NCBI GenBank assembly: GCA_943350175.1
Contig: CALQZX010000006.1
Coordinates: 1-51,375, forward strand
DNA from: Parcubacteria group bacterium
GTDB lineage: Bacteria; Patescibacteriota; Microgenomatia; UBA1400; PJMF01
Reading direction: 5' to 3'
Length of the DNA stretch: 51,375 nt
A program made the translations under genes and the position numbers. Positions 4,917 through 26,664 of this stretch are shown here, in pieces (the stretch's first letter is position 1; each line of letters begins with the position of its first letter). Under the pieces are notes generated by a model. That model did not search any database. It worked only from the letters and a program-made list of their open reading frames with translations, and was not told the DNA's origin.

Positions 4917-5050
4917 ACTCTTCTTCAAAGTGTAGATTTGGTGGATTAGGGATCCGCGCTTCTCAGATTTCCAACTTGAAGAAAAACAAATAATTAAACT
5001 AAATTAAAAGAAAAATTAAAGAAAGGAGCAATTTAATTTTCCGATGCGTT

Positions 5051-5086: not shown

Positions 5087-5116
5087 CCGAGGAGAAAAAT
5101 TCAAATTGCGACTAGT

Positions 5117-5539: not shown

Positions 5540-5624
5540 TTAAAATAAATAGACTTGCTTGCAAGTCAAAATACGTGGGAGGCTCAACCTTTACCCTAGC
5601 CGCTTGAACCACAGAAAGTAAAAC

Positions 5625-7400: not shown

Positions 7401-7405
7401 AGTTT

Positions 7406-9445: not shown

Positions 9446-9522
9446 AATGCCTTTCTTTTTTGATTTCTAATTGTTATTTTACTTTGTTTCCTTTTAATTT
9501 GTTTGCGAAGTTAAAAAAATGA

Positions 9523-9558
9523 GTCCGTCTTCCGTCCATGTTCCAGACACTCCTTCGT
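9523..9558. repeat. Copy A of a conserved ~35-nt intergenic motif (second copy at 26780-26814, opposite orientation)
   Basis: The minus-strand reading ACGAAGGAGTGTCTGGAACATGGACGGAAGACGGAC aligns with the plus strand of 26780-26814. The first 17 nt are identical and about 29 of 35 positions match overall. Confidence 0.6.
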
Positions 9559-9570
9559 ATAACTCAGTCA

Positions 9571-9594
9571 CAAAAAATCCCGCTCTTGGCGGGG
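9571..9594 (-). terminator. Intrinsic terminator downstream of the 816-aa gene operon
   Basis: The minus strand reads ccccgc-caaga-gcgggA followed by TTTTTTG. On the plus strand the same hairpin is followed by TTCTTATTTTT. Confidence 0.6.
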
Positions 9595-9690
9595 TTCTTA
9601 TTTTTCTTAAACAACAAAAAATACCCCGCTTCTTAAGCAGTGGTAGTAGTTTTGTTGTTTGAAAAAGCTTTTAACACAAAGGTGATTATA

Positions 9691-9806
9691 TTTCAGACCC
9701 TGTCTTTTTGCAATGTAATGCAAAAAGCAGCTGGTATGAAAGATGCAAAGCGAATTTCGGACCCTGTCTTTTTGCAAAAGCAAAAAGCAGCTGGTACGAA
9801 AGATGC
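9691..9806. repeat. Two tandem copies of a 52-56-nt hairpin-containing unit
   Basis: 9691-9746 and 9755-9806 share tttc[a/g]gaccctgtctttttgca...gcaaaaagcagctggta[t/c]gaaagatgc. Each unit contains an ~11-12-bp stem (ctgtctttttgc / gcaaaaagcag) with one bulged nucleotide. Confidence 0.7.
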
Positions 9807-9855
9807 TTTGCCATGGAACCTAGAAAATTAAACTGGCAAGACTTTTTTAAGCTAG

Positions 9856-12306
9856 TTACAAGCTCATGCTACTAACAGCAGTCACCAATCTGATGAGTTC
9901 TTTGTCTTCTATTTTTACTGAAGAAACCATTGGCATAGGATTTCTAGGCTTGTCACTCGCAGACTCAAATTTTCCTTTTACAAGTGTAATTATCACTGCT
10001 AGCCAATCTGCATGAGAGAAAACTTCTTTTGTCATACTAATTCTTGTTTTACTTAAAAAATCTCCAGGATCTCGGACAATGGAGGTTACAACACCTTCTA
10101 CAAAATTGTTAACTTCTTCTATCAATTTCTTAACCAAGGGAGATTTATTTAGTGATTGATAAATTAAATCAATTATCTCATCCTGAGAATAAGACTGCTC
10201 TGCCTGAGCAATAATCTTTTTTTGGACTTCTTCTGATAAGTATTTACCAACATCAATTTTCAAATTAACGTATTGCAAGTCTCCACTTTTAAATAAAGAT
10301 GAATTAATAATTCTTTCGCGAAAACTTGTTTTATTATTTCCATCAATAAATCCATCAAAAGTAAATGTCAATTTCCCCTTTGAAAAGAGATTGATTACTT
10401 TTTCCTTTTTTTGAGCAGCAGTATATGTTTCACCAGCAGTTCTACCTGGCTTCATCCAACTATACGATTTTCCTAAGGCATCTACCTCATCTGGAATATT
10501 GATATAACCGACATGCCTTTCTTCTGCTATCTCATCAGATTGGAATTTTGGATCCAATAGCTCTATCTTTCCATTTTTATCAACTAAGGCTCCATCAATC
10601 AGTTTAACAACAGCAGTTAAATCAGCAGGCAATGAAAGGCTGTTAATTTCTTCATCTAATTCATTGCGATCATAACCAAGAATTAAAACCAAATAGTCAA
10701 CTGCCTCTTGTTTTGCCAAATCATAAATTTCTGGATCCAAATCTTTGCTTATATCAAGATAAGCATTTTTTTGAAATCCAATCCTAGAAACAACTTCGTT
10801 ACGCCTCTGTAAAAGCTTGTCATTGCTTGCTAGATTTCTTTCAATTAAAACTTGAATGATGCTATTTCTAATTTCCTGAACTTTTCTCTCATTAAATTTG
10901 TCAGATGTCTCCTTGGTTCTTTGACGGTTGTCAAAGTAATCAGAAAAAACAGGTGACAACACTCCCAAGCGACCGAATTCAGAAGATGAAACTTGAATAT
11001 GGTTTACAACCTTCTCCATAGCAGCTAGTTCACTAGATAAGGTATTTACAATTTCCTTTAGAAAATCGCGTGTTTGCTGGCTCATTTCTGCTGGAGTTGA
11101 CCTACTAATATACAAGTCAACATAATCATCCAAAAATGAGAGATCTTTTTTGACAGCAACTGCAGTCACGCCACTAAAGTCAAAAGATTCTAGCTTAGCT
11201 AAGAGAGATTCTATTATCTTTGAGGACATTCTTTGGATTGGATCTACGCTCGCCGCATCGAAAAGTTGCAGAAATATTTCATCATCTATAAAAGCTTCTT
11301 GCAGTTTTTTTGGAATCACCTTGGCTAGTTTTTCGCTCAGAGCATCTCTTAGTTCTTTTACCACTCCCTCCAATTCAAGCTTTCTTTTCTCTGTTTCTTC
11401 TTCTTTGTAAGATTCTAAAAGTTTTTCAGCAAGCCCTCTTAACTCAGCTTGTTGGTAGCCACTAAAGTTAGCTAAAACGACGAAAAGCTTTTGATTATCT
11501 ATGTCATCTTTTGCCTTTTGCAAAGCCTCTAACATTGATTTGACTGTTTGAGAATCCTGAGAATATGATTCTAACAAACTAATGAGCTCGCTGAGTTTAG
11601 ATATTGAAGATGATTTGTCCTGCAACTCAAATATTATCTTATCTTCTAGATTCTCTTTAGCTGATTGTGTCAACAAATCACAAATGTAATTTCTCAACTT
11701 TTCATTTTCTATTGAGCTTAGTTTCGTTAAGATGAATTCTCTACTAGAATTTTCTTTGAGTTCTTCATAGCTATTCAGGTTAAAATCTACAACTATCTGA
11801 CCGATGAGGGTGGAATATTGCCTAGCATCTTGACCAATTTTTTCATTTGCAGAACTTGCTTCACCACTCAAAATTGAAAGGAGGGAATCTAATGAACGAC
11901 TAGTTAGCAGCTGCCTAACAAAATAAAAATATTCTATTTGTTGTCGTTTTTTTTCCTTTTCAGTCTCATCTTTTTTTTCTGATAAATATTCTTCTATTCT
12001 AGTAGTAACCTCACGATGAAGTTCGTCTACCTGCGCAATCAGTAGCTCATCAGCTGATTCTTCATCAGTTAATTGATTGGCTAATTTATTTTTTTTATTA
12101 ATTAAAATATCAGATTCAGCTTTAACAGAATTTATCTCATTAAATAATCCAGTTAAACCTTTTACTGTCTTACCTAAATCACTTTCAAAAAAAGATTCTA
12201 AATTTTTATATTTATCAATTAATTCTTGGAGTTTTTTGCGAACAGATTCTTTTCTTTGCGATTCATTTGGTTCTGGTGATGATGGAGAGTCTGGTAGGTT
12301 CACCAA
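9856..12306 (-). CDS. Hypothetical 816-aa acidic, helical/coiled-coil-rich protein with no TM segment
   Basis: Long intact ORF with a GTG start at 12304-12306. Long E/K/L-rich stretches. I recognise no family motif. It is the last gene of the minus-strand operon. Confidence 0.6.
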   Translation of the reverse strand: MVNLPDSPSSPEPNESQRKESVRKKLQELIDKYKNLESFFESDLGKTVKGLTGLFNEINSVKAESDILINKKNKLANQLTDEESADELLIAQVDELHREVTTRIEEYLSEKKDETEKEKKRQQIEYFYFVRQLLTSRSLDSLLSILSGEASSANEKIGQDARQYSTLIGQIVVDFNLNSYEELKENSSREFILTKLSSIENEKLRNYICDLLTQSAKENLEDKIIFELQDKSSSISKLSELISLLESYSQDSQTVKSMLEALQKAKDDIDNQKLFVVLANFSGYQQAELRGLAEKLLESYKEEETEKRKLELEGVVKELRDALSEKLAKVIPKKLQEAFIDDEIFLQLFDAASVDPIQRMSSKIIESLLAKLESFDFSGVTAVAVKKDLSFLDDYVDLYISRSTPAEMSQQTRDFLKEIVNTLSSELAAMEKVVNHIQVSSSEFGRLGVLSPVFSDYFDNRQRTKETSDKFNERKVQEIRNSIIQVLIERNLASNDKLLQRRNEVVSRIGFQKNAYLDISKDLDPEIYDLAKQEAVDYLVLILGYDRNELDEEINSLSLPADLTAVVKLIDGALVDKNGKIELLDPKFQSDEIAEERHVGYINIPDEVDALGKSYSWMKPGRTAGETYTAAQKKEKVINLFSKGKLTFTFDGFIDGNNKTSFRERIINSSLFKSGDLQYVNLKIDVGKYLSEEVQKKIIAQAEQSYSQDEIIDLIYQSLNKSPLVKKLIEEVNNFVEGVVTSIVRDPGDFLSKTRISMTKEVFSHADWLAVIITLVKGKFESASDKPRNPMPMVSSVKIEDKELIRLVTAVSSMSL

Positions 12307-12368
12307 ATAATCGTAACATAGACAAACCTACTTATAAAGGCAAAGCATTAAACAAACTATCTGAGAAT

Positions 12369-14486
12369 TTATCCTGCTCCACCGCCTCCGCCACCACCTC
12401 CGCCACCTCCACCTCCAGAGAAACCACCACTTGAACCACTACCGGAAGCACCGTAGCTAGTGGAGACATTGCTGGAAAGAGTGTTAAAGGCTCCGCCAAG
12501 AGAGTTCAAAGAATCAGCGAATCCTCCCAGACTTATAGAGTTTAAATCCCCTACCGATGAGTCGCCTAGATTATTAAAGCTAGAAACTCCCCAGTAAGTT
12601 GTTAGAACCTTTTGATCACCATCTGAAAAATGCACTGGCAATTGCGATAAGGCTTTCATCGAAACGCCAAAAAGTGTTCCATAAATTAAATACTTTTCCC
12701 ATAAAATGACGCTGTCTATCGAATATTCCTCTGTCTTTTTGTAATCAAACATATGTTTCTTGAAAGCTTTCCAGGAACTGGCTTCTTCCCAACCCTTTTT
12801 GGTGCGTTTTTGAGCATGAGCTTGCAAGACAGTAAAAGCCATTCCTATCGAGAAGAAAACGATTAAATTGCCTATCGCAGCAAACAAACCCAGGCTTGCC
12901 CAAGCAGTCGTTTTTGCAGATGATTCATTATCGAGAAGACTACCGAGCAAAAACAACAAAATAAAGCTAAAAAACGGCACTAGAAGGACTCGCAGAGCAG
13001 AAAAACTCTTGGCATAGTCGTAAGAAGCTCTTTCAAAGTAGCCTTCTTTTAAGCCCTCGTCTAAAGCGATTTTCTCCAAACCTTTAAAGAAAGTGTAACT
13101 AGAAGATGGAAAAGTTTTCACATACTGGCCAATGTCTAGAAGTGCTAATCTTTTTTTGGTTTGGTCAGTTGGCGCAGAAGAAAGTTCTACTCTTTTTACC
13201 CACTCTTGGCTCTTTTCGTCAAAAAATTGCAAATAGGTTTTGCCAATTTTATCGGTCAAAAATTCATAGACTTCTCTTTCTACTGCTGCCAATTCTACAA
13301 CTCTTGAACCTTTAACAACTTCATCGATTCCAGAAACCACGCGATTGGTTTTTTCCAGAAAGTATTTATATTCTTTTTTGAAAAAACCCTCTTTCTTATT
13401 ACTGCGAGTGATTTTGAAAAGTTTTTTCTGGACGAGTGATAAAACAGTGGCAGTAAAAACTTTAGGATTAAGACTGGCGGTGGCAGTCAAAATTTGTGTG
13501 ACCAAAGCCGGCTCGCTATCAGCTGGCGGCTCCCAAACACCACTCAATTTTTTTAGTGGCTTGTCTTTGCCTAGTCGCCAGAATTTAGAAAATTCCACGA
13601 CTGTCAGAAAAAATCCAAGTAAAGAGAGCAAGACTGCTGAAACAAAATAAAAGAAACCAAGACGCTCTGCTTTTCTAAATTTCGCTATCGTATCATTAAT
13701 AAAAGATTCTTCTTCTTTCAAAATTCCTGCCTGAGTCAGCGAATCACTCACTCCATTTAAGAAGAGATTCTTTGGCATCAATATTCTGCCCTCAAAAAAC
13801 TTATTCATCGGCAACTGGCTAGCTTGCAGTAAAACGTAATGAAGACCATTTTCTTTTTCTGGCAAAGTAGAAATGCTCACCTGAGCATTAAGTGGACCAT
13901 GACCAAATGCTTTGACACTATCCATTTGGCTAGGCAAGATTTCTTTAGGCAAATAAATTCTGGCCTTAATATTTGCGCTTGGCACTTCCCAATCACTTCC
14001 AATGAATTGCCAATAGAGCTCAGCCACATCCTCATGTTTAGTTATAGCATTGTCGACTTTGTAACTTAGAACAAAATTCTTAACTTCATAATTTGCCTGA
14101 AAATGCCATTGTAAATAATACTGATCGCCACGATCCTCCACTGCAAAAGTATTGTCTGGATTATTTCTGGCCTCCTCAAAATTAACAACATTTTTATCCA
14201 ACTGCTTGTAGCAAACTTTAGTATCTTTTTCGCAAAGCGTGAAGTTACTTAAAATATACTGTTCTCCGCGAGCAGCATTTTTATCAAAGTATTGGTAAAC
14301 AAAACGATAATCACCTTGAAAGTTAAAGCGCCTTTCCTCAGTGACACTCATTGAACCATCTTTATTAAGAAAAGCTTGAATCTCAACGTTATCTAAAGTG
14401 TATTCTTTGGCGGAAATTGGCGAAGAAAAAAGAAAAACAAAACTTGTTCCAAAAAAAAATAACAATAAATTGATTAATTTACTCAT
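12369..14486 (-). CDS. DUF2207-family membrane protein
   Basis: N-terminal signal (LLLFFFGTSFVFLFSSPISA) followed by an ~240-aa ectodomain (YTLDNVEIQAFLNKDGSMSVTEERRFNFQGDYRFVYQYF), with several TM helices. The tail is Gly-rich (SGSGSSGGFSGGGGGGGGGGGGGAG), which is typical of DUF2207. The start overlaps the FtsX gene by 8 nt. Confidence 0.75.
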   Translation of the reverse strand: MSKLINLLLFFFGTSFVFLFSSPISAKEYTLDNVEIQAFLNKDGSMSVTEERRFNFQGDYRFVYQYFDKNAARGEQYILSNFTLCEKDTKVCYKQLDKNVVNFEEARNNPDNTFAVEDRGDQYYLQWHFQANYEVKNFVLSYKVDNAITKHEDVAELYWQFIGSDWEVPSANIKARIYLPKEILPSQMDSVKAFGHGPLNAQVSISTLPEKENGLHYVLLQASQLPMNKFFEGRILMPKNLFLNGVSDSLTQAGILKEEESFINDTIAKFRKAERLGFFYFVSAVLLSLLGFFLTVVEFSKFWRLGKDKPLKKLSGVWEPPADSEPALVTQILTATASLNPKVFTATVLSLVQKKLFKITRSNKKEGFFKKEYKYFLEKTNRVVSGIDEVVKGSRVVELAAVEREVYEFLTDKIGKTYLQFFDEKSQEWVKRVELSSAPTDQTKKRLALLDIGQYVKTFPSSSYTFFKGLEKIALDEGLKEGYFERASYDYAKSFSALRVLLVPFFSFILLFLLGSLLDNESSAKTTAWASLGLFAAIGNLIVFFSIGMAFTVLQAHAQKRTKKGWEEASSWKAFKKHMFDYKKTEEYSIDSVILWEKYLIYGTLFGVSMKALSQLPVHFSDGDQKVLTTYWGVSSFNNLGDSSVGDLNSISLGGFADSLNSLGGAFNTLSSNVSTSYGASGSGSSGGFSGGGGGGGGGGGGGAG

Positions 14487-17040
14487 ATCTCAAAGCATTC
14501 AGGGCAGATATTTTAGTTGCTCTATATGATGGATACATTCCAGTAACAACAGCAATCACAAATGATAAGGCTACCACTCCAAATCCCAAATAAAATGGAA
14601 TATAAACCAATTGAATATAACCAAGTCCTTTGGTTACAGAAATTACTGAGAGAGCAAAGCTAAGTAATTGACCAGCCATGGCGCTGAGTAAAAGCCCACA
14701 AATTCCTCCTGACAGGCCCATGACGATGGATTCTGCCAAAAATAATCTTTTAACTTCATTTGATTTCATACCAATGGCTTTCATCAAGCCCACTTCTCTA
14801 GTTTTTTCTAAAAGCGAGACTGTCAAAGTATTAAACATGCCCAAAGCAGCAACGCTTAAAGCTACCATTCCAAGAATTGAGAGCACAAATCTAACGGTGT
14901 TAAATAACTCATTAATTTTGCCGACCGTATCAACCACTGAGCTGGTGCGGAAGCCACTGGCTTCAATATCTTGACGAGCTTTTTTAATGTTATCCTGCTC
15001 TTTAACCACAACCTTGACTTGAGAATAATTCTCTACTCCCAAGCCTCTGATATCATTGAATTGTAAATAGTAAGCTGGGGTTTTTTCTTCAGGAATTACA
15101 CCAATAATTGTAAAGTCTGCAGGAGCTGACTCGGCTTGATAGCCATCTTTGGAAAAAAATTCTTGATCAAGCATGAAAGTGGTATTAAATTTTTGGCCAA
15201 CAGCTGTTGCTTCGTCCATTCCAAGAACTTTTAGCATCGCTCTATTAACCACGGCGACTTTTTTTGCTGAATCTCTAAGTGGGACAATCTCACGTTTGAC
15301 GGTGGAAGCAGAATCAGAAGCGCCGCCCATACTAGTCCAATCAAGAGTACCATCAGACATTTGTTTGGCTTCCAAAATCGATCCATCTGCTAAAGCAATT
15401 TGACCGCTGCCACTACTTTCTTCTTCGGTCAAAGCTGCTGAATTACTGCCTTCAAAGCTGTCGCTTGTTGCTAACTCTGCACTAGAGGTCGATTCTCCAA
15501 GCACTCGACCATACATTGGCGGCTCAACCATATCTTCAATTACGACCTCATCAGCTCTTAAATAAACCAGAGATTCAATTTGTTTTTCACTGCTATCAAC
15601 ATCTTTCAAGTAAACATTTTGGCAATCACTACAGTCAACTTTTCGCCAAAGAGGTAATTTGGCGCGAATCCAATAACCAACGTTCTGGCCATTAACATTA
15701 CTACCGACATTGCCCCAACCATTCTCGCTGTAATATGACTCACCATAAACCAACTCTCCAGAAACTAGTAAATTGCCAGATTTGGAAGTGTACATATCAA
15801 GCATTTGATCATCCTTAAAAACATCAGAATAAATCTCGATATATTTACTCGCTGGAATACTAAAACTAATTGATTGGACAGTATCTCCTTCAACAAAAGT
15901 TGGCGTGGCTGAGGCCATAACTCTATATCTATCAATTGAAGCATCTTCTTCCGTCATGTAACCCTGAGCTAATTCCTGAGTTCCACCTGTTTTAATCATT
16001 TGGTATTTACCGTCCACACAATCCAACACTTTTTCGTCACAAACTTCTTTTTTCCAAATTGGCACAGAATCAGCAATCCATGGATTGAAAACATTGCCAA
16101 ATAAATCCACACCTTCGATTAGGGTTTCTTTGCTTTGATAAGTTTCACCCCAAACTTCAGTGGCGTCAATTTCTCCAACACCTCGATTGGTGTAACCAAG
16201 AATCTTGGACTTACTACTTGGCTCGGCATAAACTGCTTTCCAAACTAAAGGATAAATTGAATAACGAATTTGCGATAATTCCTTACTCAATTTAGCCCCA
16301 GTCAGGCGTTTGTTGGCGGCACCAGCCACTTGACCTTGCATTTGACCATCAATGGAGCTGGTTTCATTACTAGGCTTGGAAAAATCCTCTTCATAATCTT
16401 CAAAAAGCGTTCCTTTGACTGGCTGAATAGCTGACTGTTCCAAAAATTGCTTGGTCACGCCATAAGCCACCACGTCTGAGACAGAATTATTGAAATTAAC
16501 CTTGGAAACAACTGAGATCATTGGGATCACTAAATCAACATTTTCAATCTTTTTCATATCTTCCAAAGTTTGCTCATTAATTACCAATGAAGATGATTGA
16601 CCGATTGAAACGTTAATCTGCTTCATTTCGTCTAATCTAGCCACTCTAGAAATAACTAATCTTTGCACGCCATATCCAAGCGACAGCAAAAAAACCACCG
16701 CTCCAAAACCGATTGACATGCCACCGATGGTGATGATTGTGCGAACTTTTTTTAATTTTAAATGACGAACTGCTAAATGAACTAAATCTAGCGAAGAAAT
16801 CTCTCCTTCTTCACTAGAATTGAGTGGATCCATGATTTTTCTATACGCGGCTGAGCCAATTTTACGAAAAGGATTGGCGATTAATCTAATAATTGGCCAC
16901 CTACCAACGAACTTTAAGACATCAAAAAATAAATAAACAATCACGATCAGAAAAAAACGCAAAAAGAAAACCAGCTCTTTGAGAAGAGCGAGATAATTTA
17001 TGCTCTTAAGCTTAATCAAAAACTGCTTAAGTTTCATCAT
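14479..17040 (-). CDS. MacB/FtsX-type ABC permease with a very large (~590-aa) extracytoplasmic domain
   Basis: TM1 is near residue 100 (IITIGGMSIGFGAVVFLLSLGYG). The C-terminal FtsX domain reads LGMVALSVAALGMFNTLTVSLLEKTREVGLMKAIGMKSNEVKRLFLAESIVMG...YPSYRATKISALNALRYE. About 590 aa separate TM1 from TM2. Confidence 0.85.
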   Translation of the reverse strand: MMKLKQFLIKLKSINYLALLKELVFFLRFFLIVIVYLFFDVLKFVGRWPIIRLIANPFRKIGSAAYRKIMDPLNSSEEGEISSLDLVHLAVRHLKLKKVRTIITIGGMSIGFGAVVFLLSLGYGVQRLVISRVARLDEMKQINVSIGQSSSLVINEQTLEDMKKIENVDLVIPMISVVSKVNFNNSVSDVVAYGVTKQFLEQSAIQPVKGTLFEDYEEDFSKPSNETSSIDGQMQGQVAGAANKRLTGAKLSKELSQIRYSIYPLVWKAVYAEPSSKSKILGYTNRGVGEIDATEVWGETYQSKETLIEGVDLFGNVFNPWIADSVPIWKKEVCDEKVLDCVDGKYQMIKTGGTQELAQGYMTEEDASIDRYRVMASATPTFVEGDTVQSISFSIPASKYIEIYSDVFKDDQMLDMYTSKSGNLLVSGELVYGESYYSENGWGNVGSNVNGQNVGYWIRAKLPLWRKVDCSDCQNVYLKDVDSSEKQIESLVYLRADEVVIEDMVEPPMYGRVLGESTSSAELATSDSFEGSNSAALTEEESSGSGQIALADGSILEAKQMSDGTLDWTSMGGASDSASTVKREIVPLRDSAKKVAVVNRAMLKVLGMDEATAVGQKFNTTFMLDQEFFSKDGYQAESAPADFTIIGVIPEEKTPAYYLQFNDIRGLGVENYSQVKVVVKEQDNIKKARQDIEASGFRTSSVVDTVGKINELFNTVRFVLSILGMVALSVAALGMFNTLTVSLLEKTREVGLMKAIGMKSNEVKRLFLAESIVMGLSGGICGLLLSAMAGQLLSFALSVISVTKGLGYIQLVYIPFYLGFGVVALSFVIAVVTGMYPSYRATKISALNALRYE

Positions 17041-17789
17041 ACTTGTTGTTCTTTCGTCAAGTTGCCTCGCTTGGACACACTCAGATTTCCAAGACGCTCG
17101 TCATTGGCACCATATTCTCCCACCACCACTCCGTCTACCATGTTAACTGATCTCGAAGCAAATTTGAGATACTCCAAGTCATGTGTAACCATGATAACTG
17201 TTTTTCCTTGTTCATTAAACCGCTTAAATAAAGCCATGATCTCCTCACTGGCTTTAGAATCTAAATTACCGGTTGGCTCATCAGCTACGATCAAAGCTGG
17301 ATCGGAAATCAAAGCTCTAGCCAAAGAAACGCGCTGTTGCTGACCACCTGAGAGCTCAGCTGGGTTCTGCGTCGCTCCCTGATCCATTCCCACCATTGCT
17401 AATACTTCCAAAGCTCTTTTCTTTCTCTCTTCTTCTGGTAAACCACGCAAAGTGAGTGGAAAATAAACATTTTCCAACACACTCAAAGACTTCACCCAAT
17501 TAGATTGCTGATAAATAATACCGACTTGCTGTTTACGCATTTGTGCCCGCTCATCTTCACTGAAAGAATATAAGTTCTTACCCAAAAAAGTCACTTCCCC
17601 CTTAGTTGGCGGTTCCAAACCAAGCAGAATATTTAGCATCGTACTCTTTCCGCAACCAGATGGCCCGAAGAGGATCATGAAATCACCTTTATTAACCGAA
17701 AAACCAGCCCCTTTAATGATTTGAGTTTCTTGCGTACCCAAGTTAAAAGATTTGTGAATTCCAGTTAGTGCTAAGATCTGTTCTGACAT
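17037..17789 (-). CDS. ABC transporter ATP-binding protein (MacB/LolD/FtsE-like)
   Basis: Walker A GPSGCGKST, Q-loop, signature LSGGQQQRVSLARAL, Walker B LIVADEPTGNLD and H-loop VTHD. An ATGA-type overlap links it to the permease gene. Confidence 0.92.
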   Translation of the reverse strand: MSEQILALTGIHKSFNLGTQETQIIKGAGFSVNKGDFMILFGPSGCGKSTMLNILLGLEPPTKGEVTFLGKNLYSFSEDERAQMRKQQVGIIYQQSNWVKSLSVLENVYFPLTLRGLPEEERKKRALEVLAMVGMDQGATQNPAELSGGQQQRVSLARALISDPALIVADEPTGNLDSKASEEIMALFKRFNEQGKTVIMVTHDLEYLKFASRSVNMVDGVVVGEYGANDERLGNLSVSKRGNLTKEQQV

Positions 17790-17798
17790 ATATTATAT

Positions 17799-18194
17799 TT
17801 ATTCTATTGTTGTTGGATCGAAATTAATTTTCTTAACTTCTGGCCATAAAAATTTACTATCATTTTCTGTATGTAACGATAAATAAAAGCCTTCCATTGG
17901 AACATCTGTCAGTAAAACTGCATGAATTGTTCCAGGAACGCTACTTGTTTGCTCAGCAGTCTGCGAGCGATTTTTTTCACTTGAACCATATTTGACGAAG
18001 CCAATGGTCTCATTAGGAGTCGTCCAAAAAACTATCGCCTGATGAGGATCGATGAAAGTTACTTCGAAGTGATTGTTAAATTCACGTTGCTGTTTATTGA
18101 ATATCACCAGAGAGAAAGCTAGGCCGATAGCGAAAGCCACCAAAATGATTACGATGATTAACTTTTGTTTGAATGATGATTTTTTTAATTTCAT
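17799..18194 (-). CDS. Small membrane-anchored protein with an FN3/purple-acid-phosphatase-N-like ectodomain
   Basis: 131 aa. TM helix LIIVIILVAFAIGLAFSLVIF, then ...IDPHQAIVFWTTPNETIGFVKYGSSEK...GTIHAVLLTDV. This resembles the C-terminal FN3 units of the upstream giant protein. Its start overlaps the giant gene's stop in an ATGA. Confidence 0.6.
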   Translation of the reverse strand: MKLKKSSFKQKLIIVIILVAFAIGLAFSLVIFNKQQREFNNHFEVTFIDPHQAIVFWTTPNETIGFVKYGSSEKNRSQTAEQTSSVPGTIHAVLLTDVPMEGFYLSLHTENDSKFLWPEVKKINFDPTTIE

Positions 18195-21100
18195 TTCGCT
18201 AAAAATCCAAATATTAAAGACATATTAGAAACCACCAAATCCAGAGCATTGTCAGCTGCTTTTGGCGTAATCACCACTTTATCAACTGACTCTCCGACAT
18301 TACTGTATTGATCCTTGGACAAGGCTCTTAAGTGATAAACTTTGGAAGGAGTTAGTCCAGAAATCACCACCAAGTGGTGACTGGTCAGCGAACCATCTTC
18401 CTGAGTTTTTTGTGAATAGGTGGCACCACTACCTTCACCAAATTCTATCTGTGCCGAAGCTAGCTCGTCAGTGTTATATGAAACGACCAATTGCGCTGTA
18501 GCCTCTTCTCCGGCCCCAAGAATTTCTCCTTCAACCTTAAGATCTGTGATCTGCGGAGGGCGACTGTCAGCTGAGGTGGCAATTTGTTGTAATTCACCAG
18601 CAGCTTCATTACCAGCAGCATCCTTACCTTTGACTAAGATCGCATAAGTCATCTGTGGTTCTAAATCGTAAATAATCATCTGGTGTTTACCAGATTTAAG
18701 GGCCAAATTGACTTCATCTTTGGCAGCTCCAGGAGCAGTCACTGGATAATAAGTCACAATTGAAGATGTGCTGGTATTTGATTCCCAAGTGATCAAAAGA
18801 GTTGATCTGGCTGTGCCTTTGACCTGACTGATTTTAATATTTTTGACTTTTGGTCTGGGTAAAGTTTCAAAGGAATGGATTTCACCCTCGTACTCTTCAC
18901 CTTCCGAGTCAAAAGAGTTAATTTTGTAATAATATTTGGTGCCATCTTTAAGGTCAGATAGTTGAACTGTATGAGCACCTTCACCTGATCCAGTTGAAAT
19001 TTCCTCCATCCCACCAAAAGCCGATGATTCTCCGTAATAAAGTCTAATCTTGGCAGCATTTTTAGAAATAAACTCAATCAATGCTGTGTCCAATCCCATA
19101 CTTTTGACCTTGGGTTCTTCTGTAGTTGGAGCTGGCTCAGTTGTGAAAGTAGCTTCCTTTGATTCGCCAGTATTGCCATCCTCGTCAGTCCATTTAGCCA
19201 CGTAATAATAAGTGGTGCCTGGAGAAAGATTAAGCAGATTTAAAGTGTGACTAGTTGTCTGAGTGGAGTTCGAAACTTCTTCATCGAAGTAATCGCCAGA
19301 GCCAGTACCGTAAGCGATTCTAGAATCTGCTGTTCTAGTGGTAGCCCAAGAAGCGGTCGCTTTTCTGGTGGTAATGGCAGAAATAACTGGCTCTGCAGTT
19401 AAGCCGGCTGCTTCTATAAATTTACCATCAGGAAACAACTCGACAATTTCAGAAAAAACACCACAATTATTAGTGCTATCGCAAGCTTTAACTTTGTAAT
19501 AATAAGTTTGCTGCGTCAGCTTAGTATCAACGTAGGAAATTCCTCCACTTGTAGCGATTTGAGAGAAAACCTCACCATCTGTTGATCTATGAATTGAATA
19601 ATGATCCGTGACACCTTCCGCTGGTTTTTCCCAAGATAAAGCAATCTTCCATGAACTAGTGGCCTTGACAGACACGTCTGCGATATCCATATTTAAGGGA
19701 ATTCCAGGCGCCGTGGTGTCTGCTGTAAAAACAACTGAAGCATAATTAGAATAGTTAATGTTGCCAGCTTCATCTTTGGTTACAACATAAAACACATTTT
19801 CTCCTGGTAAAGTAGCGTATGAGCCAGCAATTAAGTTTCTAACACTCGTGGCAGTTGTACTGCGCGCAGTTGGCAAAGCGTTGATACTATAATAGTACGA
19901 CAAATTAGAAACAGATCCGTAATAAGTGTTGATGGCTGGCGGATCCCAACTGAAGGCAAAAGAATTTTCAGTATTTGATGATGGGGTAACTGCTAAATTA
20001 GTTGGAGGGGCCGGAGCATTGCCGCTATCCACGAAATAGTAAGGTGCTGAAGCATACCCGCTGTAATTTCCAGCTTCATCCTTACTGCGAACATAAAAAG
20101 TATTCGCGCCCACTTTATGGGAAGGAATGCCCGTTACAAAAGTGTCAGAAGTACACTGATCAGCTGAATAAATTCCTGTTTCAGCGCCAGTCTTGTAACA
20201 ATATTCTGTAACTAAGGCTCCACTGCTGGTGGCAGCGCTCCAGGAAAAATCAAAGTCATCGGTAGAGGTGTAACCAGATGGATCTGAGACTAAGTCAGCT
20301 GGAGCAGAAGAAGCCCCTCCATCATGCTTATAAATAAATGGCGCCCAAACATCGGTTGAAACATTTAGAGCATCATCAACTGTTTTAATTCTTAAATAAT
20401 AAGTAGTATCGTCAATTAGATTATTGGCAGAATAAGAACTATTGGTTTGCAACGACCCCGCTGAAGTTGGCTCAGCAGTTGCATCTGTGCCAAAATAAAC
20501 GTAATACCCTACCACACCAGAACCAGTGTTTGTATCTGAAGCTCCTCCAGTGGATTCAGCATCTGGCCAATCAAAGTACGGATTTTCATGACTATGCCAG
20601 TTGCCAGAAACGATAATGCTCCCTGGAGTATTATTGCTATAAGCAGCAAGCCCAGCGTTTTGCGGATTGGTTGGAGCAGCAGTGTCCTTGTAATAATTGA
20701 CGGTATAGTTATTAACAACTCCAGAATAAACTCCGTCGGCAGAAGTAAAGAAAAATTTAACTTGAATATAGCGCGCAGGTGGAGATTTGATTTCGTAATT
20801 ATAGGCAGTTCCATTGAACTTCTCTGCTGAGACCGCTGTCCAAGATGACCAAGTACTATTGTCGGCTGAACTGCGTGTCTGAATAGTTAAATCTGCATTG
20901 TCGGCAACAACATAATCAAGCTGCAAATTAACCCACTTATAAACTGAGGTCAAATCATGAACTGGAGAAATATAAGTGCCAATTTCTTCAAAACCAGAAT
21001 CTTCCGTTTGCATCACGTAGGTGTAAATTCCATCATTGAAGGTGTTTGCACCTGTGGCAGCGCCAGTCAACATGATCAGCTTGTTAACTCCATCGCTCTC

Positions 21101-24100
21101 ACCAGAACCGCCAGCAGAAACATTGGCTGGAGCATTGGCCAGAGTCGTCCAAATATTGTTAGCAATCGAATATTTGAAAAAATCATTGTCATTCTCACCA
21201 CGAGCTACATAGATATTGCCATCACCGCCATAGCTGGCAAAACCATCATTATAAACATCAATATTCAGATCACTAACAGCAGGATCGCTCCATGTGTTAG
21301 CCGTGATGTCATAGCGATAAAATGGATTATTGGCGACATTTTGTCCTCTTAGTGAATATATATAATTGCCATTTAAAACCAGCTCTGCACCGTAACCCAA
21401 ACCAACTGGACTAACTGCCATAGCTGACCACTTAGAACCGCTAGCTCCTTGTGTGTCGAAACGATAAAAAGTTGTATTAGTACCACCTCTATTTAAATAG
21501 ATATAGCGAGATCCGTCATAAACCATCGAGCTACCATAGTCTATAACTGCTGGAGTAGGGTCGTCTTCACTCCAAGTATTACTAGCAATATCATAGACAT
21601 AGAATTTTTGGACAAAATAGCCACCAGTAAAATAAATCTTATTTGCAGTACTGTCGTAAACTAAAGAAGAGCCATTGTATGCACCGACTGGCGCAACCGC
21701 CATTCTCTTAATTTCTCCACTTCTTGAATTATAACGAATGAAGTCGTCTGAATAGTTGCCCCTAGTCAGATAAAAATAATCGCCATCGCCTTTGACCAAG
21801 TCTTCACCATATCCTGGAGGAATGTTATTTACACCCTGATAGGTTCTGCCAAAAAGATCTCTATTTGGAATAAGCCAACTATCTTTACTAACATCATATT
21901 TATAGAAACTGGTGGTATTGTTGCCCACAATTGAGTAAAGATTGTCACCTATATTTTTGATCGAAGCTCCATAGTAAAAGGTGGTTGGTGCAGATTTAAC
22001 TTCTGACCAAGCTTGAGAGCCAACATCAAATTTATAAACCTTGTCAGAATAATTGCCAGCCAAGTAATAGACCGCATTGACACTCGGCACATATTCTATC
22101 GAGGAACCAAGGTAAGGTAATTGTGGCACATCAGGCAAAACTGTCCATGAATTGCTGTTAATATTATAAACAGAGAAACCATCGCGTAAGTTACCCTGAG
22201 TAGCGTAAACATAACCTCCAGCACGATCAATTGCTAGATCAGCTCCAGCATAAGCACTATTATTAACTGCATTGGCAGTAGCTCCAAAATCTAAATTTGC
22301 CAAAGATTCCCAACTATCATCAGTGGTGTTATAACGCCAAAAAGCATCGTCATCATTACCACGCATGGCATAAATATAGCCAAGATTGTCATATTCCATG
22401 GCTGCTCCATAGTAAACAGCCAAAGGAGTATCTGAAGCAGCTTCATCGCTCCATTCGTTAGCATCAATATCGTAACGATAAAAGGAAGAAGTATTGTTGC
22501 CTCGCAAACCATATAAATATCCACTAGGTCCTTCCACCACACCACCACCAATATAAATATTGGCTGGAGCATTAGCTAAAGTTGTCCAAAGATCTGTTTC
22601 CAAATCATAACTATAGAAAGTCGCAACGTTAGCTCCTCTAAAAACGTAAAGTTTATTGGAAGTTGAAACATAAGCAGTATTCTTTGCCCCATATTGCATT
22701 GCTGCTGGAGTATTACTCAAAGCTTCTTGCAACCAAAAACCATTTTCGCGACTAGCTAATTTCAATTGATTATTGGTTGTATTCACCTCTTCAGTGGTGC
22801 CAAGGAATTCTGTGACACTTAAACTCTGTGCTGGAGAAATACCTCCATAAACATAGGTAAATAAAGTGCTCGCTTCACTAATATTGCCGGCAATATCTTT
22901 GGTTTTAATCCTCAAATAATAACTACCGGTGGCTAAAGAGCTGGTGGAAACATAATTGGCATTGGTTTGATAATTGCCAACAATCTCTGGGTCAGCTACT
23001 TCATTATTGCCAAAATAAACATAATACCCAGCTACGCTAGTTTCTGCATCGCTAGCTCCAGTCCAAGAAAAATAAGGTCTGATATGAGAATAGCTTTCCC
23101 CATTACTAAGGGCTACTCCACCTACTTCCTGTGAACTAGCCACAACTGTACTAGGGTTAGTTGGCACACCAGCATCACCAGCGTAATCAATATTAATTTC
23201 ACTAAGTGTTGGTGTGTGAGTCAATCCACCTCCAGAAGCTAATAAAGTAACTCTAATTTGAATATATTTCTGTGCTGGAGAAGCAATATTGCTCCCACTA
23301 ACACTAGCCCAACTGCTCCAAGAAATAGAGTCATTGCTCGTCCTCGTCTCATAAAGAATGTCGCTGCTAGCTGGAGTTGATTCCACAACAGTGAAATCAC
23401 CAAAGCTAGACACATATTGCAAGTCTCTAGGCTCAGAAATCCAAGTGCCACTACTGACATATTTAGTTGCTCCTGGCGTGTAAGTCAAAACATAGGTTCT
23501 GCTATTACCATAAGCAATGTAAAAAGAACCACTCCCATCGTATTCAATGGAGGCTCCAGCATACAAACCCAAGTCTTGAGCTAGATAGCCATGAATATTT
23601 TGTAATTCCCTCCAAGAATTTTCACTAATTTCATACTCATACATGTCATTTTTATACCAACCAGCCAAAGCAACAATTTTTCCATCATAGTAACTTAGGT
23701 CAGTACCATAATAAGGAGCAAAGGGCGGCTTAGCCATTTCTGTCCAAGTGTTAGCTCCCCCACCAGAAATGGTATATTTGAAAAAGCGACTAATACCAAC
23801 ACCTGGAGCATAAAACAAATCTGTTCCGTTAGAAATTAGACGCGCACCTGCTCCTGCTTCAGAATCTACAGGTAAATCAGTCACCGAAACGTCATCCCAA
23901 GTGTTGCCTGAAATACTGTATCGCCAGAATGAAAGCGTTGTGTTCCCACGAGCAGCATAGATGTAATCTCCAGATCCTGGATAAGTTAAGGTGCCGCCTG
24001 CTCCAACCGTCGCTGGCGCATTGGCCATTGTTGACCAAGAATTACCTGCCACATCATAACGATAAAAAGTATTGGTATTGGAACCACGGAAAAAGTACAG

Positions 24101-25318
24101 ATAAGTTCCAGCTGCTACTCCTTTAGTGTCATCTGCCAACGTTGCTGGAGCAACTGTTAACGCAGTCCAAGTATTTGCAGAAACATTGTATCTATAGAAA
24201 GTAGTGCTGCTAGCTCCACGTAGAACATACATGTTTCCACCGTAATAGACGAAATCACTACCTGTAGAAAGAGCTGTGGGAGCATCCTCTACACCAAGGA
24301 AAGTATTAGCTGCAGGATCATATTTCCAGAAACTATATAAATTATTGCCTTGAAAAACATAGATGTAACCATCACTACTGTTGCTTATGGAACCAGCATA
24401 TCTGGATACGGCTGGTAAATTCGCTAGAGTTGACCAAGTATTAGTAGCGACAGTATAAGCATAAAAAGTTGCCGTACCTCCTTGTCTGGTTACATAAATT
24501 TTTGTTCCATCTGTCGATATGTCGACCTCTTCATTGATAGCAGCCGGCAAAGCAGCCACAGTTGACCAAATATTATTGACCAAATCATATCTATAAAAGG
24601 TAGTGGTATTAAGGCCACGTGGCGTATAAAGATAATTTCCAACTATTGTGAGATCAGCTCCTGCTCCGATTGTGGCAGGAGCACCGGTTAACGGAGTCCA
24701 AGAGTTGCTTCCAACATCATACTTATAAAAATCCTGAGTGCTATTACCACGCAAAGCATAAATGTTTTCGCCATCATTTTCCAAACTTCCACCAGCATAA
24801 ACCAGGTCAGGAAGGTCACTTAACATTTCCCATGAATTGCTGGCAATTGAATAACGGGCAAAAGCAGTCTGATAGCCACCAAACATGACGTAAATATAGC
24901 CGTCAAAATATTCTAATTCAGAACCAGAGTAAGTGCCGCGTGGCATATCTGCCAAAGTGGTCCATGTATTATCAGCCGGAGAATATTTCCAAAATAAAAC
25001 ATCTCCTAAACCTCTTGTAACATAAAGATCGTTGCCATCAGAAGCCAGAGCCGTACCAATTCCCATATTCAGGTCTGGAGTTCTCCAGCTTCTTGCCCCA
25101 ATTGTTCCAGCCGCTTCAATTGAGAAATCGCCTTCTTTGACAGAGCTGTCCAAACCAGTCATAGTGCCAGCACTCCAGTCAGAACTGGTGGTAAAAACGG
25201 CTTGATTGGCAGAAACAGAACTGGAGAAAAAGATGAAATTGAATACTACAAAAAATACGACTGATAAAATCGCAGCATGCAAACCAAAAAAATCGCGAAT
25301 TTTATATCTCGAATTCAT
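18191..25318 (-). CDS. Giant secreted protein (~2,375 aa) with two multi-blade Kelch-like beta-propeller regions, beta-sandwich modules and an FN3 array
   Basis: Signal peptide: MNSRYKIRDFFGLHAAILSVVFFVVFNFIFFSSSVSA/NQ. There are more than 20 repeats of about 47-50 aa with the pattern F[YW][RK]Y[DN]...N[ST]W[ST]...A.P...G...Y[IL]Y..RG. The C-terminal third has FN3-like units. The ORF track starts at a TTG at 25384; the ATG at 25318 immediately precedes the signal peptide and is preferred. Confidence 0.85.
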   Translation of the reverse strand: MNSRYKIRDFFGLHAAILSVVFFVVFNFIFFSSSVSANQAVFTTSSDWSAGTMTGLDSSVKEGDFSIEAAGTIGARSWRTPDLNMGIGTALASDGNDLYVTRGLGDVLFWKYSPADNTWTTLADMPRGTYSGSELEYFDGYIYVMFGGYQTAFARYSIASNSWEMLSDLPDLVYAGGSLENDGENIYALRGNSTQDFYKYDVGSNSWTPLTGAPATIGAGADLTIVGNYLYTPRGLNTTTFYRYDLVNNIWSTVAALPAAINEEVDISTDGTKIYVTRQGGTATFYAYTVATNTWSTLANLPAVSRYAGSISNSSDGYIYVFQGNNLYSFWKYDPAANTFLGVEDAPTALSTGSDFVYYGGNMYVLRGASSTTFYRYNVSANTWTALTVAPATLADDTKGVAAGTYLYFFRGSNTNTFYRYDVAGNSWSTMANAPATVGAGGTLTYPGSGDYIYAARGNTTLSFWRYSISGNTWDDVSVTDLPVDSEAGAGARLISNGTDLFYAPGVGISRFFKYTISGGGANTWTEMAKPPFAPYYGTDLSYYDGKIVALAGWYKNDMYEYEISENSWRELQNIHGYLAQDLGLYAGASIEYDGSGSFYIAYGNSRTYVLTYTPGATKYVSSGTWISEPRDLQYVSSFGDFTVVESTPASSDILYETRTSNDSISWSSWASVSGSNIASPAQKYIQIRVTLLASGGGLTHTPTLSEINIDYAGDAGVPTNPSTVVASSQEVGGVALSNGESYSHIRPYFSWTGASDAETSVAGYYVYFGNNEVADPEIVGNYQTNANYVSTSSLATGSYYLRIKTKDIAGNISEASTLFTYVYGGISPAQSLSVTEFLGTTEEVNTTNNQLKLASRENGFWLQEALSNTPAAMQYGAKNTAYVSTSNKLYVFRGANVATFYSYDLETDLWTTLANAPANIYIGGGVVEGPSGYLYGLRGNNTSSFYRYDIDANEWSDEAASDTPLAVYYGAAMEYDNLGYIYAMRGNDDDAFWRYNTTDDSWESLANLDFGATANAVNNSAYAGADLAIDRAGGYVYATQGNLRDGFSVYNINSNSWTVLPDVPQLPYLGSSIEYVPSVNAVYYLAGNYSDKVYKFDVGSQAWSEVKSAPTTFYYGASIKNIGDNLYSIVGNNTTSFYKYDVSKDSWLIPNRDLFGRTYQGVNNIPPGYGEDLVKGDGDYFYLTRGNYSDDFIRYNSRSGEIKRMAVAPVGAYNGSSLVYDSTANKIYFTGGYFVQKFYVYDIASNTWSEDDPTPAVIDYGSSMVYDGSRYIYLNRGGTNTTFYRFDTQGASGSKWSAMAVSPVGLGYGAELVLNGNYIYSLRGQNVANNPFYRYDITANTWSDPAVSDLNIDVYNDGFASYGGDGNIYVARGENDNDFFKYSIANNIWTTLANAPANVSAGGSGESDGVNKLIMLTGAATGANTFNDGIYTYVMQTEDSGFEEIGTYISPVHDLTSVYKWVNLQLDYVVADNADLTIQTRSSADNSTWSSWTAVSAEKFNGTAYNYEIKSPPARYIQVKFFFTSADGVYSGVVNNYTVNYYKDTAAPTNPQNAGLAAYSNNTPGSIIVSGNWHSHENPYFDWPDAESTGGASDTNTGSGVVGYYVYFGTDATAEPTSAGSLQTNSSYSANNLIDDTTYYLRIKTVDDALNVSTDVWAPFIYKHDGGASSAPADLVSDPSGYTSTDDFDFSWSAATSSGALVTEYCYKTGAETGIYSADQCTSDTFVTGIPSHKVGANTFYVRSKDEAGNYSGYASAPYYFVDSGNAPAPPTNLAVTPSSNTENSFAFSWDPPAINTYYGSVSNLSYYYSINALPTARSTTATSVRNLIAGSYATLPGENVFYVVTKDEAGNINYSNYASVVFTADTTAPGIPLNMDIADVSVKATSSWKIALSWEKPAEGVTDHYSIHRSTDGEVFSQIATSGGISYVDTKLTQQTYYYKVKACDSTNNCGVFSEIVELFPDGKFIEAAGLTAEPVISAITTRKATASWATTRTADSRIAYGTGSGDYFDEEVSNSTQTTSHTLNLLNLSPGTTYYYVAKWTDEDGNTGESKEATFTTEPAPTTEEPKVKSMGLDTALIEFISKNAAKIRLYYGESSAFGGMEEISTGSGEGAHTVQLSDLKDGTKYYYKINSFDSEGEEYEGEIHSFETLPRPKVKNIKISQVKGTARSTLLITWESNTSTSSIVTYYPVTAPGAAKDEVNLALKSGKHQMIIYDLEPQMTYAILVKGKDAAGNEAAGELQQIATSADSRPPQITDLKVEGEILGAGEEATAQLVVSYNTDELASAQIEFGEGSGATYSQKTQEDGSLTSHHLVVISGLTPSKVYHLRALSKDQYSNVGESVDKVVITPKAADNALDLVVSNMSLIFGFLAK

Positions 25319-25506
25319 GTCTATAAATATGATAGATAGTCGTTTAAAAGAAGTCGAGTCTATGTTTTTTCTAAACAAGATCAAAAATGATCTAAATATA
25401 TAAAATTTTTAAAAATTACCAACAAAAAACAACATTATCTAAAATTAATCTTAAATTCAACAAAATAAACCGCTTTGAGTTAAAACTTTCAAGTGGCTAG
25501 AAACCC

Positions 25507-25722: not shown

Positions 25723-26226
25723 ATGCCAAATCAACATAATCAAGAACAAATTAAGATTATTCAAGAAAAATTGGATAAGGCAGCTTCCATGGTCGTTATC
25801 GACTACGCTGGCGCCAAAGTCAAAGATTTGACCGATCTCCGTGCTGCTCTTAGAGAAGCCGGTGGTGAAATGTTTGTCACCAAGAACACCCTGATCGACA
25901 TCGCCGTTGGTAAAGGCAAGGTCAGCGACTCCCTACAAGGCATGAGTGCGGTGGTTTTTTCTTATAAAGATCCAGTCGCCGCTATCAAAGCTTTAGTGAA
26001 ATTTCACGATGACACAGAGCTTTTAGATATCAAGCAAGGTTTCATGGATGGCAAAGTTTTATCAGTTGAAGAAGTTCAAGCTCTAAGCAAATTGCCAGGT
26101 AAGAACGAACTAATTGTCATGTTAATTCAGACACTTAAGTCTCCAGGTCAAGGTTTGGTCAATGTTCTTCAGGCAAGTGCTCGTAATTTAGTTTACGTCA
26201 TGAAGGCTATCGCCGACAAAAAATAA
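25723..26226 (+). CDS. rplJ: 50S ribosomal protein L10
   Basis: 167 aa. ...VVIDYAGAKVKDLTDLRAALREAGGEMFVTKNTL... is the typical L10 block. The gene lies directly upstream of rplL. Confidence 0.92.
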   Translation: MPNQHNQEQIKIIQEKLDKAASMVVIDYAGAKVKDLTDLRAALREAGGEMFVTKNTLIDIAVGKGKVSDSLQGMSAVVFSYKDPVAAIKALVKFHDDTELLDIKQGFMDGKVLSVEEVQALSKLPGKNELIVMLIQTLKSPGQGLVNVLQASARNLVYVMKAIADKK

Positions 26227-26277
26227 TATCAATTAGATTAGATTTAATTAATAAAGTAGTAAGAAAGGAACAAATAT

Positions 26278-26664
26278 ATGGCAGAACTCTCAGAAAAAGT
26301 TCAAAAGCTCGTTGACGCAGTCAAGGAACTCTCCTTAATGGAAGTTTCAGAACTCGTAACCGCTTTAGAAGACACCTTTGGTGTCACCGCAGCCGCCCCT
26401 ATGATGATGGGTGCCGCCGCTGGTGCTCCAGCCGCAGCTGCTGTGGAACAAGACGAATTTGACGTCATCCTCAAAGAAGCTGGCAGCAACAAAATTGCCG
26501 CCATCAAAGCAGTGCGTACTCTTAAACCAGAATTAGGTTTAGGTGAAGCCAAAGCTTTCGTCGAATCAGCTCCTAAGCCAGTCTTAGAAGGTGCCAAGAA
26601 GGAAGATGCTCAAGCAGCCAAAAAGACCTTGGAAGAGGCCGGTTGCGTCGTTGAATTGAAGTAA
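26278..26664 (+). CDS. rplL: 50S ribosomal protein L7/L12
   Basis: N-terminal dimerisation helix, an Ala/Pro-rich hinge ([21 protein letters not shown]), then [66 protein letters not shown]. Confidence 0.97.

Follow-up and report, generated by a model that had tools for sequence, protein, structure and literature searches.

Genetic linkage of a type VII ABC ATPase and permease to giant FN3-stalk surface proteins across Patescibacteria

The DNA analysed here, called the window in what follows, is a 51,375-nt stretch of contig CALQZX010000006.1, and its gene content (ribosomal proteins, ThrRS, LeuRS, Mur ligases, MreB, ComEC and ComEA) is typical of Patescibacteria. Its minus strand carries a run of six open reading frames (ORFs), in which the gene of a giant surface protein stands ahead of the genes of a small membrane protein and of an ATP-binding cassette (ABC) ATPase and permease of the MacB/FtsX type (type VII). 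In the order of transcription, the giant gene (18191..25384) encodes 2397 aa from TTG 25384, or 2375 aa from ATG 25318; the next one (17799..18194) encodes a bitopic protein of 131 aa, with an N-terminal transmembrane (TM) helix and one FN3-like extracytoplasmic domain; the ATPase gene (17037..17789; 250 aa, ABC_tran 118 bits) and the permease gene (14479..17040; 853 aa, FtsX 59 bits, MacB_PCD 58 bits) follow, and then come the gene of a DUF2207 membrane protein (12369..14486; 705 aa, N- and C-terminal domains 100 and 99 bits) and that of a near-orphan protein of 816 aa (9856..12306), with no family match, no TM helix and no signal peptide. An intrinsic terminator (9570..9593, minus strand) closes the transcription unit, with the hairpin CCCGCCAAGAGCGGG and then a T-run, read on the minus strand at 9593-9579.

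This layout agrees with the initial annotation, which had been made from the letters of the DNA and had described the six genes as one coupled operon: the coordinates of all six ORFs are correct, the ATGA overlap between the giant gene and its neighbor at 18191-18194 can be read directly (GCG AAA TGA over ATG AAA), and the other junctions match the ORF coordinates, namely a 9-nt gap at 17790-17798, a 4-nt overlap at 17037-17040, an 8-nt overlap at 14479-14486 and a 62-nt gap at 12307-12368. The terminator was confirmed as well, and Pfam scores above cut-off back the Kelch, FN3, ABC_tran, FtsX/MacB_PCD and DUF2207 labels. Two other labels fared less well: for the 131-aa protein, the TM helix stands, and the FN3 assignment is backed by a weak profile similarity to the final FN3 unit of distant giants, the Pfam score being 21.6 against a threshold of 30 bits; for the 816-aa protein, a crude heptad scan found just two short heptad-like windows, and the "coiled-coil" label has otherwise only the E/K/L-rich composition behind it.

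Conservation of the region was followed by two scans. In the permease-anchored one, species-representative genomes were searched with an alignment of the permease, and at least 548 relatives were confirmed; in the giant-anchored one, metagenome contigs were searched with the last 300 residues of the giant, so that the outcome would not be biased by the permease anchor. The best 80 loci of each scan were taken for study, the six window proteins were compared with all loci by tblastn, and ORFs were reconstructed; 167 related loci were examined. Among the permease-anchored loci, 66 were non-redundant and had enough upstream DNA: the C-terminal ~850 aa of the giant were encoded directly upstream, on the same strand and adjoining the ATPase and permease genes, in 60 of them (15 also with the small protein), elsewhere within 10 kb in five, and nowhere in one. 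Starting from the giant, ATPase and permease lay immediately downstream in all 44 non-redundant metagenome loci with at least 3.5 kb of downstream sequence (18 also with the small protein), and an adjacent ATPase was present in each of the 17 loci with 1.2-3.5 kb.

Five independent relatives were inspected by hand, and their flanking genes were unrelated from locus to locus. The gene order giant (2372-2408 aa), small protein (129-141 aa), ATPase and permease is kept at 74%, 54%, 48% and 44% permease identity, and in a relative at 39% identity a LamG/FN3 protein of 1969 aa is encoded directly upstream of a 713-aa permease. A linkage of this extent (60/66 and 44/44), kept across classes and with unrelated flanks, is far beyond what co-regulation of unrelated genes would give. 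The junctions between giant, ATPase and permease are equally tight in the reconstructed ORFs of the relatives, with 4-nt overlaps and few-nt gaps, and this recurrence indicates that they are not due to chance. Second copies of the module on one contig keep their own ATPase and permease, both on Ga0210044_10000002 (loci L092 and L118) and on JBAYIT010000002.1 (L032 and L078).

In conclusion, the real unit is a module of three genes found across Patescibacteria (giant, ATPase and permease), which becomes one of four genes in the window's clade, and in genetic terms the type VII ABC pair cannot be separated from a family of Sec-targeted giants with FN3 stalks. The tie between ABC pair and giant expected by the initial annotation is thus found in both search directions; of the co-conservation of six genes that went with it, the giant, ATPase and permease stand throughout and the small protein stands in the window's clade, while the DUF2207 and 816-aa genes drop out.

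Some further observations concern the loci themselves. On JBAYIT010000002.1, the ranges of L032 and L078 are less than 1 kb apart; on two contigs (prefix JACKGU; L031 and L082) of the metagenome-assembled genome (MAG) HK-STAS-PATE-46, by contrast, there is a single complete module and also a permease with no giant beside it. ATPase and permease are fused in several lineages (L011 and L028; P0073, P0096, P0100, P0106 and others), with the ATPase at the N-terminus as in E. coli MacB. As for taxonomy, the relatives are Microgenomates/Pacebacteria-like Patescibacteria, and the closest ones carry the names Pacebacteria, Woesebacteria or Microgenomates, so that the setting given by the initial annotation was right. 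Record CP011212.1 (L008) has TM6 in its title, yet its protein is named Pacebacteria by NCBI, and many "binchicken" MAGs with this module are labelled Pseudomonadales, Gammaproteobacteria or Bdellovibrionales; these taxon labels are not trustworthy.

Regarding the giant, its layout comprises an N-terminal signal or anchor, two Kelch beta-propeller regions, Ig/FN3-like units and a conserved C-terminal module, and the Pfam domains found in it are Kelch_6 (138 bits), Kelch_1 (109 bits), fn3 (47 bits), Pur_ac_phosph_N (33 bits) and Big_13. The many Kelch motifs above cut-off fall in two regions, which a segment scan places at ~residues 100-640 (23465..25087, minus strand), as part of a variable head, and at ~residues 890-1450 (21035..22717, minus strand). 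The start codon is ambiguous (TTG 25384 or ATG 25318): several orthologues align from residue 23, and one called orthologue uses the long form. Residues 23-59 (25208..25318, minus strand) are read from the sequence as a predicted Sec-type signal peptide or signal anchor, with a hydrophobic segment (residues 35-53) and then VSA|NQ, and the segment resembles a Sec signal from either start; it would be cleaved if it acts as a signal peptide. N-terminal hydrophobic segments occur in most homologous giants, and the giant orthologues in the same position measure 2357-2408 aa.

The two ends of these proteins behave differently. Among homologues of the C-terminal module, the heads are LamG in 20 of 43, DUF2341 in five, Kelch in three and FGE-sulfatase in two, and RCC1 and FG-GAP/VCBS types were also met; the heads may be lectin-like and bind glycans. 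The C-terminal module of the window's giant (~residues 1500-2397; 18194..20887, minus strand) is an array of FN3-like units, and tblastn of residues ~1500-2395 matches, in nearly all loci, the gene that stands upstream of the ABC pair; along it, conservation climbs from ~0.3 to 0.65-0.8 consensus in the last ~400 residues, and the extreme C-terminus, …SKVYHLRAISKD…ITPKAT.NAL.LVI.NL…FGFL, is nearly invariant across classes in more than 60 divergent loci. Its last part (18194..18259, minus strand; ITPKAxxNALxLVxxNLxxxFGFL) is a candidate docking element: the tail is an amphipathic helix with a hydrophobic moment of 0.28-0.40, and its mean hydrophobicity of 0.4-0.54 is unlike that of a true TM helix (~0.99). 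The conserved end of the giants is also the end encoded next to the ABC genes, and such C-terminal conservation, being unusual for the stalk of an adhesin, points to a fixed protein-protein interface.

As for the ABC pair, the ATPase has its catalytic motifs intact, with Walker A at residue 42, LSGGQ at 146, LIVADE at 166 (Walker B and the catalytic Glu) and the VTH H-loop at 201, and its gene overlaps that of the permease by 4 nt. The permease has the features of a type VII protein: the FtsX domain PF02687 scores 59.4 bits (cut-off 25.5) at residues 722-845, and the MacB-like periplasmic core PF12704 scores 57.8 bits (cut-off 27) between TM1 and TM2, where profile positions 1-118 match residues 101-220 and the rest of the profile resumes past an insert. 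An AlphaFold2 (AF2) model built from an 85-sequence alignment, with a predicted local distance difference test (pLDDT) score of 83.9, begins with an additional hydrophobic helix at the N-terminus, continues with the canonical TM1 and its stalk and with a two-part Porter-like domain (strands at 141-195 and 595-700), and ends with TM2-4, which makes four core TM helices and an ectodomain of ~590 aa. The four-helix TM fold with long stalk helices was recognized by Foldseek, and the matches, over the TM and Porter core only, were LolE/LolC (entries including 9rlc and 7arh), YtrF, MacB, Spr0694/5, HrtB, BceB, YbbP and FtsX; the top ones had E-values of 1e-13 to 1e-10 with probability 1.00, the weakest listed (FtsX) had ~1e-4, and YtrF had the highest sequence identity among those listed (23%). 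Residues 1-96 (16753-17040) form a conserved N-terminal extension; its long hydrophobic helix (16-46, with F29 nearly invariant) precedes the canonical elbow helix and TM1 and is possibly a fifth one in the membrane.

The MacB periplasmic core domain is split in two by an all-beta insert of the ectodomain (residues 244-505; 15526..16311, minus strand). It is a tandem duplication of a beta-domain of ~130 aa (internal repeat E-value 1e-4) with the Cys pairs C334/C341 and C470/C473, and both copies align to the single copy of a short-clade permease, short-clade permeases having just one; the insert is conserved and, in AF2 models, confidently folded, most 10-residue blocks having a pLDDT above 90. 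A MAFFT alignment had pointed to residues 370-560 as an extra domain missing from short permeases, an assignment overturned by the pairwise comparison that revealed the duplication. Foldseek gave no significant match for the insert in PDB or BFVD; weak SH3b-type ones recur (endolysin, NlpC/P60, lysostaphin and phage SH3 protein), and they hint at small beta-barrel subdomains at most. In published structures of the family, the position of this insert corresponds roughly to that of the FtsX lobe that binds EnvC and of the LolC hook that binds LolA.

Membership in the known systems was assessed with NCBIfam and Pfam. FtsX models gave 28-30 bits against cut-offs of 225-255 and FtsE gave 205 against 264.85, and no LytM, CHAP or NlpC/P60 domain, as in the partners of FtsEX, was detected in the six products; for LolCDE, TIGR02212 scored 64 against 362 and LolD 206 against 307.75, with one permease gene per module; for MacAB-TolC, NF007826 scored 63 against 966, and the small neighbor had no HlyD match. 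With all the equivalog scores for FtsX, FtsE, LolC/E, LolD and MacB so far below their cut-offs, the ABC pair is not an orthologue of any of them, and the possibility left by the initial annotation, that it might prove to be a housekeeping FtsEX or LolCDE system, can be set aside. A type I secretion system of the LapA kind did not emerge either, since no RTX, ABC_membrane, HlyD or OEP domain was found by the same searches and the giant has an N-terminal signal-like segment instead. No defence or phage assignment was obtained for the six products from PADLOC, PHROGs or NCBIfam, apart from generic ATPase or permease similarity; the homologues are named in databases as "hypothetical", "FN3 domain-containing" or "ABC-type antimicrobial peptide transport system permease".

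The 131-aa protein has a conserved TM segment and a QTSS..PG..H motif, and where it occurs it always lies between giant and ATPase. It is restricted to the window's clade, in which the beta-domain of the permease ectodomain is duplicated: with the small protein, the permease measures 802-872 aa in 26 of 28 loci (the two exceptions are a split ORF and an ATPase-permease fusion), and without it 601-786 aa in 71 of 80 (the nine exceptions are four long permeases and five ATPase-permease fusions). From this distribution, the protein is a candidate for a clade-specific accessory subunit.

Type VII ABC systems are known to do mechanical work on extracytoplasmic partners by means of their ectodomains, as described for FtsEX-EnvC (PMC7668044), YbbAP-TesA (PMC12646458), the MacB family (reviewed in PMC5985334) and in PMC6705773. 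In the mechanism proposed for the module, the giant would be exported by Sec, and its conserved C-terminal FN3 units and helix would dock on the permease ectodomain, at the beta insert; binding and hydrolysis of ATP in the cytoplasm would be relayed through the stalk helices of the permease, which would anchor the surface protein and hold, activate or reshape it, in the way known for FtsEX and its partners EnvC or PcsB. The ABC pair would thereby form a base, under the control of ATP, for a surface fibre with a lectin head that probably serves to bind glycans of the host or of a substrate. That a type VII ABC docks and mechanically acts on a giant surface protein exported by Sec is argued here by analogy, and the chances that it does are judged to be about even. 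Export of the giant by the ABC pair, one of the functions considered by the initial annotation, is unlikely: a Sec-type signal or anchor stands at the N-terminus of the giant, and protein translocation is not known for type VII systems. The role in host attachment put forward there is plausible.

Several points weigh against docking and mechanical action. Gene linkage is equally compatible with a shared pathway in which no stable complex is formed, and the geometry differs if the N-terminus of the giant stays anchored. A single ancestral event may account for the joint occurrence of the small protein and the duplicated ectodomain domain, and four long permeases occur without the small protein. 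In the one transposon sequencing set of Patescibacteria that was examined, from Southlakia, the MacB-type permeases are all small and no copy of the module is obvious (PMC10633639). The essential Southlakia proteins SEML1_0890 and SEML1_0891, with FN3 and VCBS domains, were considered as a module and turned out to be small and unrelated.

A different use of the same parts would be extraction and hand-off in the manner of LolCDE, in which the giant, once exported by Sec, is transiently retained in the membrane by its C-terminal helix or by an uncleaved signal anchor, and the ABC pair spends ATP on pulling it out and releases it or mounts it on the wall or surface layer, acting as an assembly factor and not as a permanent base. 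The top structural matches of the permease include LolE, and LolC in complex with a lipoprotein; YbbAP-TesA likewise extracts hydrophobic cargo from the membrane (PMC12646458), the moderately hydrophobic C-terminal helix could sit at the membrane interface, and an obligate linkage fits a dedicated assembly factor equally. However, conservation extends over ~400 aa of FN3 units, beyond the helix, which suggests a larger and lasting interface; the helix is too polar and too short for a stable TM anchor, and no gene for an acceptor or carrier like LolA is conserved with the module in the hand-inspected loci, so that extraction appears rather unlikely. Much less is to be said for the ABC pair as an ordinary system for efflux, resistance to antimicrobial peptides or FtsEX-type division that is merely co-regulated with the giant. 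The MacB family does contain efflux pumps (PMC5985334), and the database name of the homologues, with its antimicrobial peptide transport, points the same way; against this stand the linkage found from opposite directions, across classes and with unrelated flanks, the duplicated giants that adjoin their own ABC pairs (L032/L078 and L092/L118), and the equivalog scores given above. No gene of a membrane fusion protein was detected among the six products, the 131-aa protein being without an HlyD-type match, and an ordinary transporter or division system is considered very unlikely.

The machine of six parts drawn by the initial annotation, with the DUF2207 protein as an ectodomain partner and the 816-aa protein as a cytoplasmic scaffold, can be weighed on the same loci. 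The six genes run in one direction, their junctions are tight and they share a terminator, and the DUF2207 gene overlaps the permease gene both in the window and in the closest genome. The DUF2207 protein is a true member of its family (PF09972 and PF20990; 100.2 and 99.2 bits), and a search against PDB sequences gave nothing for it, but its gene is no part of the conserved module: it adjoins the module only in L001, L002 and L008 (copies of one genome) and in L088 and L089, is ~9 kb away in L014 and L018, and is absent from the neighborhood in all other loci; among the five relatives inspected by hand, it follows only in the genome at 74% identity, and the 816-aa gene follows in none. The 816-aa protein was met in none of the 167 loci, not even in relatives with 88-89% identity across the last 300 residues of the giant. 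A word-based search returned the query itself only, and exhaustive HMMER over 1.84 billion representatives returned 10 matches including itself, i.e., nine distant homologues, in which no Pfam domain was found; the protein itself had no match in Pfam, NCBIfam, PADLOC, PHROG or PDB, and a PDB profile search gave nothing meaningful. The GC content of its gene is 0.337 against 0.392 for the window, and a terminator segment of ~100 nt (9555-9656) is 88% identical to the sequence directly after DUF2207 in the closest genome (L001), which places the 816-aa gene between DUF2207 and the ancestral operon terminator. By these signs the 816-aa gene is a recent insertion outside the module, and it appears, with DUF2207, as a later addition to the same transcript in this lineage and not as core; as a scaffold the first is a near-orphan of low GC content inserted upstream of a conserved terminator, as a machine part the second is adjacent only in the closest relatives, and a machine of all six products is judged highly improbable.

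Going beyond docking and mechanical action on the giant, the module might be an undescribed organelle of the whole phylum, with the type VII ABC as the motor base that actuates (extends, retracts, tensions or releases) a giant FN3 fibre with a lectin-like head; this is possible, if doubtful. If true, it would be an energized device for capturing hosts or substrates in metabolically minimal, pilus-dependent episymbionts, in which swappable heads set the specificity and particular lineages have added accessories such as the FN3 protein of 131 aa and the duplicated beta-domain of the ectodomain.

Elsewhere in the window, the nusG-rplK-rplA-rplJ-rplL cluster is split, with NusG, L11 and L1 at 3253-6356 and L10 and L7/L12 at 25723-26664, both on the plus strand; the two halves are separated by an inverted minus-strand block of ~19 kb (6414-25384) that holds Ldh_2, ThrRS and the module, and the same split occurs in the closest genome (L001) and not in more distant relatives. 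At 28742-31432 (plus strand), a MurD-like ligase of 896 aa has an N-terminal extension of ~450 aa without Pfam match, and a second Mur ligase gene is next to it (31451-32830, plus strand). The gene of a small dockerin-domain protein (632-1012, plus strand) overlaps that of a 651-aa protein with only a weak N-terminal TM match (999-2954, plus strand), and this pair is kept in the closest genome (L001, 19863-22155); dockerin proteins have been reported as essential envelope proteins in Southlakia (PMC10633639). Finally, at 41974-44091 (minus strand), genes for ComEC (Competence domain) and a ComEA-like protein (SLBB plus HHH) adjoin that of a metallo-beta-lactamase-fold protein, as is usual for the DNA-uptake genes of Patescibacteria.

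A large part of bacterial diversity belongs to Patescibacteria, which lack an outer membrane and are believed to spend their life attached to other cells. Their giant surface proteins have so far been noted only descriptively, e.g., in Vampirococcus (PMC8080830), and for the question of how the surface proteins of these cells are anchored and operated the module is a directly testable candidate. No published description of the pairing of a giant with a type VII ABC was found in the full-text literature, whose coverage was incomplete, so that an earlier mention is possible. If the ABC pair does act on the giant, the partners of type VII ABC systems would extend beyond EnvC-type activators, LolA, MacA/TolC and TesA; the ectodomain beta-domain is a possible new fold, and hundreds of "hypothetical" or "antimicrobial peptide permease" annotations could be put right.

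Among the known systems, FtsEX resembles the module in that the ectodomain of a type VII ABC permease binds a Sec-exported protein (EnvC in E. coli; PcsB, CwlO and RipC in monoderms) (PMC7668044), a contact that in the module would involve the giant; ATP hydrolysis is relayed to the partner rather than spent on transport, and FtsEX, too, functions without an outer membrane. The 131-aa protein might be comparable to SweC and SweD, the small membrane cofactors of B. subtilis (PMC6705773). The differences are that the permease ectodomain of the module measures ~590 aa and has a beta insert, in place of the small X-lobe of FtsX; that the partner is an FN3-stalk protein of 1000-2400 aa, with lectin-like heads and a C-terminal helix, and not a coiled-coil activator of peptidoglycan hydrolases; and that the gene of the partner is obligately adjacent.

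LolCDE, likewise of type VII, works on a protein associated with the membrane and binds its partner by an element of the ectodomain, and it is among the top matches to the permease core; the module, instead, has a single permease gene, for which a homodimer is expected, in place of the LolC/LolE pair, no LolA-like gene, a partner without lipobox, and presumably a monoderm organism as its carrier. MacAB-TolC, Spr0693-0695, YknXYZ and YtrEF share the fold, with the ATPase separate or fused, whereas the module has no detected gene for a membrane-fusion adaptor or TolC and is dedicated to its giant neighbor; where MacB has the Sabre subdomain, the module permeases have one or two copies of a beta-domain without PDB match. 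The LapA/LapBCE system also has the gene of a giant, repetitive adhesin beside ABC genes, and a terminal element proposed to hold the adhesin at the surface; however, LapB belongs to another class of ABC and moves the unfolded adhesin, by means of a C-terminal secretion signal, through a membrane fusion protein and TolC, while the module has a type VII ABC, a giant with an N-terminal Sec-type signal, and no outer membrane to cross. What would be new here is an ectodomain domain without a solved structural relative and, with it, the extension of type VII ABC mechanotransmission to a new class of partners.

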